Of a DNA stretch of 64,000 nt, positions 4,570 through 13,246 are shown in pieces. Position 1 is the first letter of the stretch. The number at the start of each line of letters is the position of its first letter. The translations under genes were made by a program, and so were the position numbers. The stretch lies in the NCBI RefSeq assembly GCF_054482595.1, contig NZ_CM137008.1; one strand, written 5' to 3'. The notes under the pieces are model-generated. The model saw only the letters and a program-made list of their open reading frames with translations. It ran no database searches and was not told the DNA's origin.

Positions 4570-5454
4570 GTGCGATATGACAAAGAATTAACGGAGAATG
4601 TGATGATCAGGCAGAAGATTCTACAGCAGCTCCTGGAGTGGATTGAGTGCAATCTTGAGCACCCTATTTCAATCGAAGATATCGCACAGAAATCTGGCTA
4701 CAGCAGACGCAACATCCAGCTTCTGTTCCGAAATTTCATGCATGTGCCTTTGGGAGAATACATTCGCAAACGAAGGCTTTGTCGTGCCGCCATTCTTGTC
4801 CGGCTCACCGCGAAATCTATGCTTGATATTGCACTCTCTTTGCATTTTGATTCACAGCAATCATTCAGCCGCGAATTTAAAAAGTTATTCGGCTGCTCTC
4901 CCCGTGTATACCGCCACCGTGATTATTGGGATCTCGTAAATATCTTCCCTTCTTTTTTAATACGTCAACAGCAAAAGACGGAGTGTAGATTAGTCAACTT
5001 TCCTGAGACACCTATTTTTGGCAATTCATTTAAATATGATATTGAAGTGTCGAATAAATCACCGGATGAAGAAGTCAAACTGCGACGTCATCATTTAGCC
5101 AGATGTATGAATAATTTTAAGACGGATATCTATTTCGTCTCCACGTTTGAACCGTCAACAAAATCGGTCGATTTGCTCACGGTTGAAACTTTTGCTGGTA
5201 CGGTATGTGAATATGCTGACATGCCAAAAGAGTGGACAACGACCCGAGGACTTTATGCCTCTTTCCGTTATGAAGGAAACTGGGAAAATTATCCTGACTG
5301 GGTGCGTAACATCTATCTGATAGAGTTGCCTGCCAGGGGGTTAGCCAGAGTGAACGGCAGCGATATTGAGCGCTTTTATTACAATGAAGATTTCGTAGAA
5401 AAGGATGGCAATGATGTTGTTTGCGAAATTTTTATTCCCGTTCGTCCGATTTAG
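4570..5454 (+). CDS. AraC-type HTH regulator with C-terminal GyrI-like effector domain
   Basis: 294-aa ORF divergent from the reductase; AraC HTH region (SIEDIAQKSGYSRRNIQLLFR...FKKLFGCSPRVYR). True start may be the internal Met at 4603. Confidence 0.75.
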   Translation: MRYDKELTENVMIRQKILQQLLEWIECNLEHPISIEDIAQKSGYSRRNIQLLFRNFMHVPLGEYIRKRRLCRAAILVRLTAKSMLDIALSLHFDSQQSFSREFKKLFGCSPRVYRHRDYWDLVNIFPSFLIRQQQKTECRLVNFPETPIFGNSFKYDIEVSNKSPDEEVKLRRHHLARCMNNFKTDIYFVSTFEPSTKSVDLLTVETFAGTVCEYADMPKEWTTTRGLYASFRYEGNWENYPDWVRNIYLIELPARGLARVNGSDIERFYYNEDFVEKDGNDVVCEIFIPVRPI

Positions 5455-5574: not shown

Positions 5575-8500
5575 TTATTTCATCGCCTCCTCGCCCGTTG
5601 CCGTATTGGCATCCACCGCGGTAATGGTCACCGTCACTGGCTTCATTTCGTACCCGCCATAGGTCAGGGCGTTAAATGTGAATGTATAGACACCAGGCTT
5701 GCTGGTACTAAATGTACGCGTGATTTTTCCGCTCACGAAATGGTCATTTTTCGACGGCAGGAACTGATAATCCTCCTCCGTCACCCCTTCCGGCGTCTGA
5801 ATGTCGACCCACATATTCCCGCCAACGGGGTTATTTGCCGACATCAGGGTCACCTCCAGCTTCGCAGTCGATTTCCCATCCGCCACCAGAGATTGCATAT
5901 CAGATGATGCGGTGAGCACCGCGTTTTTATCATCCGCGACGAATTTAGATTCGGCAGTTTTCGTTGATACCTGACCGTTGGTCTGACTCACTTGCGCCGT
6001 GAGTTTATATGTCGCCGCAACAGTAGTGGTGGCGGTGAAAATAGCCTGCCCTTGCTCATTCGTTGTCGCAGTGCCATTCGGTTCCAGGTTTAACGAAGCC
6101 GGGCTGGCAGTTAGCGTCACGTCGCTATCTTTCACCAAATTGTTATTGGCATCAGTCACCGTAACTTTATACGTTTGTTTGGCTTTGCCGTCCGCCAGCG
6201 CATAGTTGCCCATCACCTCAATACCGGAGACGGTTGCGGTAGCCTTATCGGCTACAAACGTTATAGTCTGCGTATCCGAAGGCTGGCTATTCCCTGCCGA
6301 TGCCGTGATCTCATACGTTCCGGCAGTCACTGAAACCACCTGCAACTCGGCTTTCCCCTCATCGTTGGCTTTCACCCAGACATTATCGCCTGTAAGCGGC
6401 TTGACACCCCGGGGCAGATTAAAGGTCACCAGGCTCCCTGGAACAGGGTTACCATTTTTATCCTCAACGGTCGCCGTCAGCGTAAAGGCATCTTTGCCGT
6501 TTGCCACTTTTTGAACGGCGGTGTCTACCTGCAGGTTTGCCTGACCGGTGCTGGCATCCGCGTTGAATTTCACCGTGACCGTCTTCTGAGCACCATTCAC
6601 CGAAGCGGAAATATTGTGTTCTCCCGCAACCGTTGACATCAGCTCAATGTCCACTTTCCCTGCCGCATTGGTTGTTACTGTATTCCCCGTCTTGCTGGTC
6701 ACACCCTGCGGTAAAGTCAGCGTAACTTCTTGCCCCTGCAACGGGTTACCATAGCTGTCCACGACGGTCAGGGTTATCTGGTTCGCAGACTGTCCATTAG
6801 CCAGTTGGTTATTAAACTTCACTGTCATATCACGAATCTCAGCCTTAGATGCGTCACCTGCAACATTCAGCACCAGTGGCTGAGCAACGGCATTTTGGCC
6901 GTTCACTCGCGGCATCACAGACAACTGACCCGCGGCAGATCCCAGCGTTAAGGTCGACACGTAGACCCCATTACCTTTCTCTGTCCAGTTTCCTGCTGAA
7001 GGACGCTCACTCCCCGTGCTGGCGGCACCGCTAAACACTGGTGCATCTGGCTTCAGCCCGGTGACCGGGTTCCCGTACGCATCCTTCACGGTGAAGGTGA
7101 GTTCCGTCGTCGTTTTGACGGTCGGAGCCTTATTGTCCGCAACAAGCGTAGAGTTCGCTGATGACATCTCCCCGGCGATGACCGTCAACTGCGCGGCTTC
7201 GGTGGCTGCTGGCTGGCCGTTGAAGAGCGGCATGACGCGAAGCTCGCCCGTCTTTCCGCCTGTAGTCAACGTAGCAACATAGGAACCGTCACCTTTTTCG
7301 GTCCAACTGGAAACGGTCGCCCCTTCAGAGGCGGTCCCCGTCAAACTTGCCGACAACGCAAGACCACTGATAGCGTTGCCATGCGCATCTTTCGCCACCA
7401 GCGTCACGGTTGTGCTTTCGCCGGCTTTTACGTGGTCTTCTGCGACAGAGACTTTCGACTGGTTTGAAGATAACGCATCAGCCACCACGGTTACTTTTGC
7501 CGCATTTGCTGCCGCATTCTGTCCATTTAGCTTCGGCATAACTTCTAATTCACCCGCCGTAGAGCCGAGAGTAATCTGCGCAGTCCACGTCCCATCACCA
7601 TTATTTGTCCAGCCCGATGCCGTAGAACCTTCAGCAGCGGCACCCGCTAATGACGGCGCTTCCGGCGTGAGGCTGGTCACAGGGTTGTCATAGGCATCTT
7701 TTACCGTCCAGATTGCCGTAACTGTACCCCCAACCACCGGTTTATCAGGATTCAGGGTGATGGACGAATGTGCTGCATCAAGCGGCCCGGCAACAAACTT
7801 CAGCGTTTGTTGTAATGTGCCCAGCTGATACTGCTCGCTGAAAGCACGCACAACAACGTTTCCGGCACGGGTCGAAGAAACCGTGGCGCTGTAAACGCCT
7901 GGTTTTATTTCCGAAATGGCACCAACGGTTACACCATTAGTGTCTTGCGGAACAAATCGCAAGCGGCTGGCTTCTCCCGTCACCGGATTACCCTCGGAGT
8001 CCACCGCAGTCAACGTCAACGTATAGGCTTGCTGACCATCAGCAACCACGTCACCTGACGGCTCGTTAGCGCTCAGGGTGGAGTTTGCCACATCCATCAT
8101 CGTGGCCCGCAGTTCTGCAGTGACGGTTTTGCTCATGCCATCAACGCTAACAGTAATCGTTGCCTCACCTGACTGCGTTCCGGTAGTAAAGACAGACTGA
8201 TACACCCCTGCTTCAGTTTCGGTGAACTCACCCAGTGTTGGCTTTGCCTGTGATTTAGTGGCCTTCAGGGAACGAGTCACAATATTTCCAGCCGGTTTGA
8301 AAGTTAGTTCAGTCTTGATCTGATCTTTCATGCCCGTGACTGGCTGGCCCTCGGCGTCGCGCAGAGACAGCACCAGCGGTTTTTGCTCATTACCGTTAGC
8401 AAGCATTTGAATACGGCTCTGACCGTCAAGCGTTAACGCCGTGCGATCGGCGCTCATACCTGCTCCGGTAATGACCACCTCTGTCTGCACGCGTTTTGAG

Positions 8501-9828
8501 GCATTGCCTTTGTTATCGTAGGCAACCGCAGAAATCGCATAATAATTGTTTTTACCTGGACGATAAGCCGGGAGCGTTACTTGCCACTGACTACCCTGAC
8601 CGGTAATTTTGCCACCTTCAGCCAGTAATGACGGCGCTTCCCACTGCACATTTTTCAGTCCGTGAGTTGCTTTGCTGACCACAAGCCCCAGGGAAAGTGT
8701 CTGACCGCCCTTACCTTCAATACGCTCAGGCAGAGCAATACGGATCACCTCAGATTTGCGGTACTCAAGAACGATGTTGTTATTACGCTCAACCAGGTCA
8801 TAGCGGCTGCCTGCCAGTACCCGACGCTCGCGAATGCTATCCGTATCGAGTTGTTTCGCCAAAGGTTCGCCAATTCGGTAGTTAACTTCCAGGCCAAAGC
8901 GAGTGTCATTCTCACCGCTCTTGCCCTGCTTATGCCCGGCGCTCAGTGTCAGAAGAGGCACTGGCGTATAGGTCACCTCGGCAGAAATCGCATGCGGGTC
9001 TTTCTGGCGCTTATCTTTACCAAACAGCCCGACTTCATCGCCATAATACTGTTCATACATCAGGCTTGCGCCAAGCTGCGGCCAGGCAGGTAAATAGCCC
9101 TCTGCGCGGATATCCCAACCATTCGCCGGGCGTTCCTGATAATCCTCAATATCCGGCGATTTTTTCCAGCCAGAAGCCCGAATATAACCATTGGCGCTCA
9201 GTTTCAAATAATCACGCCAGTATTCCGCACCAACACCAATGCGGGTATGACTACGGGATAAATCATGGTCGATAAAGGTGTTCACCCCCGCCATCCAGTC
9301 ATTTCCTGAAAAATGACGCCAGCCAAAACCAATATTTGACTGAGTACGATCGTCGGTACGATGTATTGCTCCCTGAGTGAACAACATATTTGTTGGCGTA
9401 TCATAAATCGGATAAAGCATTTCCAGCGAAGAATCCTTCAGCGAGAAATTTTTATCGACATTCAGTTTGACGCGCGCAGTACCGTATTTCCCGAGCCACT
9501 CCTGTATTTCCTGGTTAGCTTTAGCGGTGGCCATTCCGGTAATAAAGTTACGTGTCGCATCGCTATCTGGCTGACTGCTTAAAAATGTCCCGGCATTTGC
9601 GGCAAACGACGCGACATTTTTCTCCACGTTATTATCAGCAGTTACCGTAGTATTTCCCATGCTCAACCGTGGCTGAACCGCATGCTGCGCACGTGCCGCC
9701 ATTACTGGGGTAAAGGTGACAGCGAGTGGAAAAAGAACCTGAACAGAGATATTTGCCCACGCCACGCAGCGGGCCAGAACTGAATAACGAAATCGTGGTT
9801 GTTTATGACCTGTTTTATAACGTGACAT
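5575..9828 (-). CDS. fdeC: Intimin-like inverse-autotransporter adhesin, apparently intact
   Basis: Single 1417-aa ORF; N-terminal signal and beta-barrel region followed by many Ig-like (Big) repeats rich in T/V/G/A. Confidence 0.85.
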   Translation of the reverse strand: MSRYKTGHKQPRFRYSVLARCVAWANISVQVLFPLAVTFTPVMAARAQHAVQPRLSMGNTTVTADNNVEKNVASFAANAGTFLSSQPDSDATRNFITGMATAKANQEIQEWLGKYGTARVKLNVDKNFSLKDSSLEMLYPIYDTPTNMLFTQGAIHRTDDRTQSNIGFGWRHFSGNDWMAGVNTFIDHDLSRSHTRIGVGAEYWRDYLKLSANGYIRASGWKKSPDIEDYQERPANGWDIRAEGYLPAWPQLGASLMYEQYYGDEVGLFGKDKRQKDPHAISAEVTYTPVPLLTLSAGHKQGKSGENDTRFGLEVNYRIGEPLAKQLDTDSIRERRVLAGSRYDLVERNNNIVLEYRKSEVIRIALPERIEGKGGQTLSLGLVVSKATHGLKNVQWEAPSLLAEGGKITGQGSQWQVTLPAYRPGKNNYYAISAVAYDNKGNASKRVQTEVVITGAGMSADRTALTLDGQSRIQMLANGNEQKPLVLSLRDAEGQPVTGMKDQIKTELTFKPAGNIVTRSLKATKSQAKPTLGEFTETEAGVYQSVFTTGTQSGEATITVSVDGMSKTVTAELRATMMDVANSTLSANEPSGDVVADGQQAYTLTLTAVDSEGNPVTGEASRLRFVPQDTNGVTVGAISEIKPGVYSATVSSTRAGNVVVRAFSEQYQLGTLQQTLKFVAGPLDAAHSSITLNPDKPVVGGTVTAIWTVKDAYDNPVTSLTPEAPSLAGAAAEGSTASGWTNNGDGTWTAQITLGSTAGELEVMPKLNGQNAAANAAKVTVVADALSSNQSKVSVAEDHVKAGESTTVTLVAKDAHGNAISGLALSASLTGTASEGATVSSWTEKGDGSYVATLTTGGKTGELRVMPLFNGQPAATEAAQLTVIAGEMSSANSTLVADNKAPTVKTTTELTFTVKDAYGNPVTGLKPDAPVFSGAASTGSERPSAGNWTEKGNGVYVSTLTLGSAAGQLSVMPRVNGQNAVAQPLVLNVAGDASKAEIRDMTVKFNNQLANGQSANQITLTVVDSYGNPLQGQEVTLTLPQGVTSKTGNTVTTNAAGKVDIELMSTVAGEHNISASVNGAQKTVTVKFNADASTGQANLQVDTAVQKVANGKDAFTLTATVEDKNGNPVPGSLVTFNLPRGVKPLTGDNVWVKANDEGKAELQVVSVTAGTYEITASAGNSQPSDTQTITFVADKATATVSGIEVMGNYALADGKAKQTYKVTVTDANNNLVKDSDVTLTASPASLNLEPNGTATTNEQGQAIFTATTTVAATYKLTAQVSQTNGQVSTKTAESKFVADDKNAVLTASSDMQSLVADGKSTAKLEVTLMSANNPVGGNMWVDIQTPEGVTEEDYQFLPSKNDHFVSGKITRTFSTSKPGVYTFTFNALTYGGYEMKPVTVTITAVDANTATGEEAMK

Positions 9829-10378
9829 TGAGATAATTTCCTGATGAACGAATTAACGAACATAGGCAGACACAAATAATGGCGTCTGCTTGTCAGAAAA
9901 ACCGGGGATTTCCCGGTTTCCTTTTCCGCAGAAAAGGAAATACCTTTATGTAAGAAAGTACACCGCCACCTAATATATCCAGTGCCTGTAGCCACTCATC
10001 AGGTGGTTGGGCGCGGGATTATATTTTTATTTATGGGTGAAAATTTAGCTTTTTGTGCAAGTCATTAAATAGATACTTAAGTTATATTTCTTACTCTGTG
10101 GACAGTGAATAATTCATTATTCAGAGTGAATAATAATGACCTACCTTTAATTAGCAACTATTGGAAATACGTCGAAGTAGGTATATACGCCAGGATAAAC
10201 CGATATATTTTTTATGGATATTCATTTTCCTTTATCGGACTGTAAATTGCGGAGATATCGAACTTGCACTACCCATCGCAACACTCAAACAGATTTATGA
10301 ATTTTGTTCATAACCCCTGACAAATCCTGCCGTCTAATCGAGCTTTTCCCTTTACGTTATGCTTCTCATGAACGATAA

Positions 10379-13246
<2,868 letters not shown>

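Follow-up and report, generated by a model that had tools for sequence, protein, structure and literature searches.

A conserved, structured 5' leader of the Escherichia coli adhesin gene fdeC with terminator-like and predicted ribosome-site-masking elements

FourU-type RNA thermometers are represented by Salmonella agsA, Yersinia lcrF, and Vibrio toxT. The E. coli gene agn43, encoding Ag43, has a long structured 5' leader that has been reported to influence transcript completion, in a system whose control is dominated by Dam/OxyR phase variation, and the 5' leader of Shigella icsA contains a terminator hairpin. According to PMC3185424, icsA is an outer-membrane autotransporter virulence gene that is silenced by H-NS and whose transcript is attenuated by a 450-nucleotide (nt) antisense RNA, RnaG. 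Premature intrinsic terminators have been described in E. coli 5' untranslated regions (5' UTRs) (Adams et al. 2021, PMC7815308), and the class II geometry of promoters served by MarA, SoxS, and Rob is a forward marbox centered between -36 and -55 (PMC12052159). Here we describe the leader of fdeC, a minus-strand gene for an inverse autotransporter adhesin, in a 64,000-nt stretch of contig NZ_CM137008.1 (assembly GCF_054482595.1), called the window below; all positions are those of the window. As an adhesin, FdeC is widely conserved in E. coli and a vaccine candidate, and its expression is puzzlingly tight. A conserved structured leader offers a concrete, mutable target for explaining that tightness beyond transcription initiation, and a route to engineered FdeC-expressing strains for antigen and adhesion studies. 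The element is of a familiar kind, a structured regulatory leader, and is apparently undescribed in accessible sources; the accessible literature ties no leader structure, terminator, thermometer, small RNA, or Term-seq signal to fdeC or its K-12 counterpart eaeH. Like agn43, fdeC is a gene for an adhesin or autotransporter preceded by a long, structured 5' leader, but the sequences are unrelated and the fdeC locus bears no sign of Dam/OxyR phase variation.

Three consecutive inverted repeats occupy positions 9866 to 9940, which places them 38 to 112 nt 5' of the fdeC start codon (ATG at 9828), as a preliminary description of this DNA had observed. The first, HP1 (9917-9926/9931-9940), is a perfect repeat of 10 bp around a 4-nt loop; HP2 (9899-9906/9912-9919) has 8 perfect bp and a 5-nt loop; and HP3 (9866-9871/9884-9889) has 6 perfect bp, or 8 bp when read as RNA. 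The same description had suggested that the repeats mark either a structured leader RNA or a site of protein-binding control, and had named folding of the leader as a check. On the minus strand, the 141-nt core from 9820 to 9960 folds with -44.7 kcal/mol, compared with -25.9 ± 3.1 kcal/mol for 200 dinucleotide shuffles, none of which folded as well (z = -6.0).

Leaders for comparison came from Escherichia sp. E1V33, E. whittamii, the divergent "E. coli" E69 clade, Logan contig L041, three metagenomic contigs, and a Kosakonia-like genome (GCA_051411795.1) in which the gene neighboring fdeC is 99% identical to Kosakonia sacchari proteins. A genome scan for further diversity gave three close orthologues, and a metagenome scan for leaders unlike the E. 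coli type gave only three E69-like contigs. The resulting covariation alignment held 14 sequences in 11 distinct rows. Within it the stems change and remain paired. A U-A pair of HP1 is C-G in Kosakonia; the closing pair of HP2 is G-C in E. coli, G·U in L041, and A-U in Kosakonia, and a C-to-U change in the HP2 of K-12-type strains gives a U·G pair; a G-C pair of HP3 is A-U in the E69 clade; and the Kosakonia HP3, with a different stem sequence, still forms a hairpin of -11.6 kcal/mol. Standard pairs fill 97.7% of pair cells, compared with 39 to 50% when partners are slid by one to three columns. Double changes occur at five pairs, and the observed covariation score was reached by 1 of 500 column shuffles. 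Pairing is better in the fdeC sense (97.7%) than in the antisense (91.6%), and 41 cells are G·U in the fdeC sense and therefore C·A mismatches on the opposite strand. The better sense-strand pairing and the G·U cells thus argue for RNA hairpins in a transcript running in the fdeC direction, and not for DNA operators. From these comparisons, we consider it highly probable that selection acts on the hairpins as RNA structures of a transcript in the fdeC sense.

Of the two possibilities raised at the outset, the structured leader RNA is thus favored by the compensatory and wobble changes, the sense-strand pairing, and the invariant flanks, and the protein-binding DNA palindrome is disfavored, since G·U intermediates and loop changes are unlike operator half-sites. 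An operator for a transcription factor would be in keeping with the perfect 10-bp arms of HP1. An RNA-binding protein such as CsrA might instead use the leader as a platform, given four GGA motifs in HP1, HP2, and the Shine-Dalgarno region that are retained in Kosakonia and a direct repeat, UUCGUU-AA-UUCGUU, before the Shine-Dalgarno sequence. Yet the stems vary by compensated and G·U-mediated substitutions and the loops drift, which is the signature of RNA and not of a half-site, and the GGA motifs lie mostly in stems instead of loops and match the SELEX (systematic evolution of ligands by exponential enrichment) consensus only loosely. An operator or CsrA-type platform is exceedingly improbable on this evidence.

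The leader region is single copy, and of 5426 complete E. coli genomes about 5030 have it. In E. coli, the 202 nt that precede the ATG reach an identity of at least 99% in 2564 records and of 95 to 99% in 2471, and the fdeC coding sequence one of only 90 to 95% in 2968 records. Among 13 Escherichia sequences, 85.6% of columns are invariant from -133 to -1, compared with 31 to 73%, depending on the segment, in the first 450 nt of fdeC; the coding-sequence figures are depressed because contig L052 aligns poorly past +150. In the divergent clades homology begins abruptly at an invariant block, CTTGCACAAAAAGCTAAAT, continues with a second, AAAAATATAATCCCG, and runs through to the start codon; DNA 5' of the first block is unalignable (42 to 53% identity). 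The Kosakonia-like locus (L039 3001-5752) has the full leader in front of an FdeC that is 78% identical at the N terminus, among different flanking genes. Its fdeC orthologue was called as two open reading frames (ORFs) of 522 and 397 amino acids, for which reason it is probably both frameshifted and considerably shorter than that of E. coli. Pairwise identity to Kosakonia is alike in leader and gene, with the leader differences clustered in hairpin stems and loops and the linkers identical.

Besides weak self-complementary matches at HP1, all matches to a profile of the leader, whether in the window or in orthologous loci, were fdeC leaders. The same leader was sought before other inverse-autotransporter genes of Salmonella, Citrobacter, Pectobacterium, Rahnella, Gilliamella, and other loci, and none was found; the phylogenetic range of the element is narrow, namely, fdeC of Escherichia and one Kosakonia. 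A REP/BIME/ERIC-like repeat was rejected on the basis of a median of one place per genome and a maximum of two (5035 genomes), and a mobile or repeated element was rejected on the basis of the single-copy state. The curated Rfam collection, searched in full (4227 families) at a permissive E value, gave a best match of 18.5 bits (E = 1.9) against a gathering threshold of 41.2 bits. Logan contigs L042 to L047, which at 65 to 76% identity resembled divergent homologues, carry an E. coli locus in which C has become T, or G has become A, over the whole length, and they appear to have been assembled from reads of bisulfite-treated DNA. Two protein matches proved to be bisulfite-converted reads.

The consensus structure computed with RNAalifold agrees with the minimum-free-energy (MFE) folds of all nine distinct leaders, that from Kosakonia included, and AGGA-UUCU and AUG-CAU are paired throughout. 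The elements, all on the minus strand, follow one another in the order P1, HP0 (optional), 5' strand of helix 4, HP1, HP2, 5' strand of helix 7, HP3, small helix 9, 3' strand of helix 7, and 3' strand of helix 4. P1 (9966-10006) is a long-range stem of the 5' domain, CCACC/GGUGG, that encloses a variable inner hairpin; its pair counts include one compensatory change and several wobble-preserving changes, and in Kosakonia the sequence differs and the architecture is the same. The HP0 segment, CUUUCUUACAUAAAGGUA (9941-9958), has alternative predicted folds at 37°C and 42°C, either as a small hairpin of its own or with CAU and AGGUA paired to the start codon region as helix 4; within it, CAUAAAGGUA is invariant in all 14 sequences. 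HP1, UUUCCUUUUC-UGCG-GAAAAGGAAA (9917-9940), has a predicted energy of -10 to -13 kcal/mol. HP2 and its U-tract, AAACCGGG-AAAUC-CCCGGUUU followed by UUCU (9895-9919), are terminator-like in the fdeC direction. Viewed on the plus strand (9899-9941), HP2 and HP1 are both terminator-like, with tails TTTCCTT and ACCTTTAT. The predicted anti-Shine-Dalgarno segment, UUUUCUGA (9893-9900), is the 5' strand of helix 7, and HP3, GCAGACGC-loop-GUGUCUGC (9866-9889), lies inside that helix. The 3' strand of helix 7 is UCAGGAAA (9837-9844), which contains the Shine-Dalgarno sequence AGGA (9842-9839), and the 3' strand of helix 4 is UAUCU..AAUG(U) (9825-9835), invariant, with the start codon at 9828-9826 and CAU..AGGUA as its predicted partner. 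An invariant direct repeat, TTCGTT-AA-TTCGTT (9846-9859), stands between HP3 and the Shine-Dalgarno sequence and is weakly paired in the predicted fold (helix 9).

With confidence a little better than even, we lean toward a model in which the leader is a cis-acting 5'-UTR element that would limit FdeC synthesis after initiation, by attenuation at HP2 together with masking of the ribosome site. Transcription would start a few bases 3' of an invariant TATAAT (10023-10018), and the nascent RNA would fold as P1, HP0, and then HP1 and HP2, hairpins whose conservation as RNA emerges from the comparison above. Some transcripts would probably end at HP2 and the UUUUUCU that follows it. In those that read through, the U-tract UUUUCUGA is predicted to pair with UCAGGAAA, enclosing HP3, and the invariant CAU..AGGUA just 5' of HP1 to pair with UAUCU..AUG, so that the ribosome site and the start codon would lie within a multi-branch structure. 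The outcome would be low basal FdeC until a signal opened the structure. Heat is the obvious candidate signal, because the reported appearance of FdeC is confined to 39°C and higher; alternatively, a trans-acting factor could open it.

The attenuation step draws on HP2, in which CCGGG-AAAUC-CCCGG followed by UUUUUCU has the stem-loop and U-tract of an intrinsic terminator, with an energy of -8 to -12 kcal/mol in every lineage. A strict scan (perfect stem of 5 bp or more, four or more of them G-C; loop of 3 to 8 nt; and five or more T's among the next seven positions) found eight sites on both strands of the 64-kb window, compared with 0.7 in shuffles, and HP2 is one of only two on the minus strand. 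The 5'-UTR terminators of Adams et al. 2021 (PMC7815308) are similar in having a hairpin and U-tract in the 5' UTR that could yield a short leader RNA and limit downstream expression, but the fdeC locus is missing from that K-12 data set, and the gene there is a pseudogene. Shigella icsA (PMC3185424) is comparable as an autotransporter virulence gene under H-NS, with a transcription attenuator like that proposed for fdeC; unlike icsA, fdeC has no evident antisense partner, shares no sequence similarity with it, and adds predicted masking of the ribosome site.

HP2 could instead be the end of an independent small RNA of about 116 nt, consisting of P1, HP0, HP1, and HP2 and acting in trans, with fdeC expressed only by leakage or from another promoter. 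The nascent 116-nt RNA is indeed four consecutive stem-loops with a canonical hairpin and U-tail at its end and no strong antiterminator, HP2 is a stringent terminator-like site, and the conserved single-stranded CAUAAAGGUAUUUCC could act as a seed. The region beyond HP2 speaks otherwise: conservation is no lower in HP3 and in the 40 nt leading to the ATG, HP3 is compensated at the RNA level, and the gap separating HP2 from HP3 cannot accommodate a promoter. Because HP3 is compensated and lies only 3 nt past the U-tract, it must be reached by read-through from upstream; by inspection, there is no credible -10/-35 pair anywhere between HP2 and the ATG. The element also always accompanies fdeC, even in another genus and genomic context, and the U-tail has only five U's. 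No small RNA or small gene is annotated under the leader in 60 sampled E. coli genomes, and eaeH, ykgP, and ykgR are all missing from the 3'-end mapping supplements of K-12 (Adams et al. 2021, PMC7815308). We therefore regard a separate small RNA as unlikely. Two short ORFs in the leader were also set aside. A 9-codon ORF in P1 was rejected as a leader peptide, being missing from the E69 clade. A 53-codon ORF (9702-9863, minus strand), which has an invariant AUG at 9863 and overlaps the fdeC start in another frame, lacks a Shine-Dalgarno sequence and was judged noncoding; it is open in most lineages and in L052 is cut at codon 16, leaving 15 codons.

HP2 satisfies the strict rule on the plus strand too, and the HP1/HP2 pair could also stop antisense transcripts leaving fdeC toward the divergent aldo/keto reductase gene. 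Taken as the sole function, this would make the pair a bidirectional terminator or insulator that stops transcription across the intergenic region, for example, of spurious antisense transcripts of an H-NS-bound fdeC, with no role in fdeC translation. In keeping with such a role, a general terminator scan called HP1 terminator-like on the plus strand, and the adjacent DNA has the 27 to 36% G+C typical of H-NS-bound regions. However, an insulator leaves unexplained the invariance of the 40 nt proximal to the Shine-Dalgarno sequence, of HP3, and of P1, and also the sense-strand pairing bias, and K-12-type strains lack the reductase genes and keep the element unchanged. As a full account of the repeats we find it very unlikely.

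The masking step of the cis-acting leader model rests on predicted folds. In the MFE structures of the nine distinct leaders and in the consensus, the Shine-Dalgarno AGGA pairs with UUCU in an imperfect helix, which is fourU-type pairing. As in the fourU thermometers, a U-run would pair with the Shine-Dalgarno AGGA in an AU- and G·U-rich imperfect helix 5' of a virulence or adhesion gene whose product is seen only at raised temperature. In contrast to them, the U-run of fdeC doubles as the tail of a terminator-like hairpin, about 125 nt of multi-branch structure are enclosed by the predicted masking helix, the threshold on record (39°C or above) exceeds the usual switch from 30 to 37°C, and the modeled melting has no sharp transition. 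In the core construct, the Shine-Dalgarno bases are predicted to be 1 to 13% unpaired at 37°C and 3 to 17% unpaired at 42°C. Masking of the ribosome-binding site is thus a reasonable prediction with modest thermodynamic support.

In vitro at 37°C no FdeC is produced; the protein appears upon contact with host cells (PMC3324786). In enterohemorrhagic E. coli (EHEC) its detection has required a temperature of at least 39°C and an alkaline pH, according to PMC11143625, which cites Easton et al. 2014. In avian pathogenic E. coli (APEC) a hemagglutinin-tag reporter with the native upstream region was induced at 42°C compared with 37°C (PMC11143625). The leader may underlie this published expression at 39°C or above, and it makes the long-noted tightness and temperature dependence of FdeC expression directly testable. 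A pure RNA thermometer would act on translation only, with the U-tract:Shine-Dalgarno and CAU:AUG helices melting at about 39°C and the terminator likeness of HP2 incidental. Such a reading fits the UUCU of the U-run paired with AGGA, as in fourU thermometers, the AU- and G·U-rich helices with internal loops, and the temperatures for which expression is on record, 39°C or above for EHEC and 42°C for APEC (PMC11143625). It fits less well with a modeled change that is only gradual (opening energy from 4.3 to 4.0 kcal/mol), with retention of the element in plant-associated Kosakonia, and with H-NS as a published explanation of the thermoregulation. Melting alone as the whole mechanism therefore appears distinctly unlikely.

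Several observations weigh against the combination of attenuation and masking that we prefer. The modeled melting proceeds gradually from 25 to 50°C and does not switch near 39°C, a behavior that nearest-neighbor models judge poorly. For the full-length leader, the energy needed to open positions -15 to +5 is about 4.3 kcal/mol at 37°C and drops smoothly to 4.0 and then, at 45°C, to 3.8 kcal/mol, and the last two Shine-Dalgarno bases are already 36 to 51% unpaired at 37°C. H-NS could by itself explain the effect of temperature, as reportedly claimed in the title of the 2014 study by Easton et al. Joining the tail of the leader to its head gains -7.9 kcal/mol, compared with -3.9 ± 2.0 kcal/mol for shuffled tails, of which 40 of 1000 did as well (p about 0.04). 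Helices 4, 7, and 9 are invariant in every sequence, and covariation is uninformative about them because they never vary. Where covariation is seen, it derives from few independent events among 11 distinct sequences, and with such events and depth it amounts to good support, short of statistical proof. As for attenuation, HP2 on the minus strand escaped the general terminator scan, in our reading because maximal stem extension consumes the U's; forcing HP2 open gave no conserved antiterminator alternative within 5 kcal/mol; and the lack of eaeH, ykgP, and ykgR entries in the K-12 3'-end supplements counts here also. With regard to initiation, a K-12 Cappable-seq annotation file (GTF) has no plus-strand start in U00096.2 313100-313699. 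The fdeC locus appears silent in K-12. Supplements of an EHEC RNase E CLASH (cross-linking, ligation, and sequencing of hybrids) study contained no ECs0336, eaeH, or fdeC entry.

The promoter predicted to drive this leader contains two conserved blocks. The marbox-like CTTGCACAAAAAGCTAAAT (10043-10061, minus strand) has one mismatch to AYNGCACNNWNNRYYAAAY in the forward orientation; it is invariant in all Escherichia clades and differs in Kosakonia at the first base only. A perfect TATAAT -10 hexamer (10018-10023, minus strand), within the invariant AAAAATATAATCCCG, is kept in every orthologous locus while the flanks diverge, and it has no -35 partner. From the last marbox consensus base to the -10 box there are 19 bp, or 18 bp counting the customary unspecified 20th position (10042), and the TTGCAC core stands at a constant 31 bp from the -10 hexamer in E. 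coli, the cryptic Escherichia clades, and Kosakonia. The position of the -10 box predicts a transcription start near 10011 and a leader of about 185 nt, which would center the marbox-like site at about -40.5. By itself the match is at the level of chance (two in the window, with 1.2 expected), and its weight comes from its invariance and from the fixed spacing across genera. The segment from 10018 to 10061 looks like a class II promoter of the MarA/SoxS/Rob type without a -35 hexamer. It is like the class II promoters of PMC12052159 in having a forward marbox-like sequence about 40 bp 5' of the predicted start, in place of a -35 hexamer, and in that a gene of Rob architecture adjoins the target; it differs in that the fdeC start is a prediction, the one-mismatch marbox is of a common kind, and the adjoining regulator is a Rob paralogue. 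A TTGCTA-16-TATTAT promoter at 10157-10130 was rejected, as it is not conserved even in K-12, and so was a sigma-54 reading of TTGCAC..GC, in which the spacing is off by 2.

The adjoining gene (4603-5454, plus strand) is convergent with fdeC and encodes a Rob-like AraC-family regulator with HTH_18 and GyrI-like domains by Pfam, in agreement with its annotation; its K-12 counterpart, ykgA, is a pseudogene. The regulator is syntenic with fdeC in the E69-like clade, where it is 82% identical (L051 1387-2238), and in Kosakonia, where it is 64% identical (L039 5870-6814), despite different upstream neighbors of fdeC in both. It is a candidate dedicated regulator of fdeC that might act at the marbox-like site. 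Together with the promoter prediction, its synteny points to a protein that might be the missing activator. A more ambitious proposal would have a two-layer switch, in which one U-tract serves as both terminator tail and anti-Shine-Dalgarno sequence, set the 39°C threshold, be transcribed from a class II promoter on which the Rob-like regulator (YkgA) acts, and move between genera with promoter, leader, gene, and regulator as a unit; we offer this as speculation and think it improbable.

The fdeC gene itself (5575-9828, minus strand) is an uninterrupted frame of 1417 amino acids with an ATG start, as found in the ORF list, in the RefSeq annotation of an identical locus in strain XH990 ("inverse autotransporter adhesin FdeC"), and by Pfam. 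An N-terminal inverse-autotransporter barrel (IAT_beta) spans residues 76 to 350 (E = 1.5e-108), and the passenger has nine Invasin_D3 and four Big_1 stretches in a full-length frame, the composition of a type Ve adhesin. The preliminary description had singled out this uninterrupted frame and a K-12 allele disrupted by an insertion sequence (IS). Both points agree with the data, K-12 eaeH being an 888-bp pseudogene that abuts and runs into IS3A, but the implied interest of an intact gene does not follow, since intact is the common state. Of 5426 complete E. coli genomes, 4585 carry a contiguous match spanning at least 80% of fdeC; complete fdeC genes have been reported in 67% of 126 genomes and 83% of E. 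coli reference collection (ECOR) strains (PMC6714894); and the K-12 pseudogene is already on record (PMC3324786). An intact fdeC is thus ordinary and already published, with K-12 as the IS3-disrupted exception. In the bovine strain RM9131 (L056 801-5049) fdeC is annotated as frameshifted and the leader is intact; decay of fdeC is therefore not confined to K-12.

The hairpins sit in a 565-bp divergent intergenic region between fdeC and the aldo/keto reductase gene (10394-11245, plus strand). The low G+C content from 10000 to 10300 (27 to 36%) fits the reported H-NS silencing of fdeC. A 46-bp piece of the intergenic region (10334-10379) is present alone in H25, a genome without fdeC. Homology to K-12-type strains stops near 10379, which is 15 nt short of the start codon of the reductase gene, and those strains have ykgP/ykgR DNA in place of the reductase, LysR, and hydrolase gene cluster.

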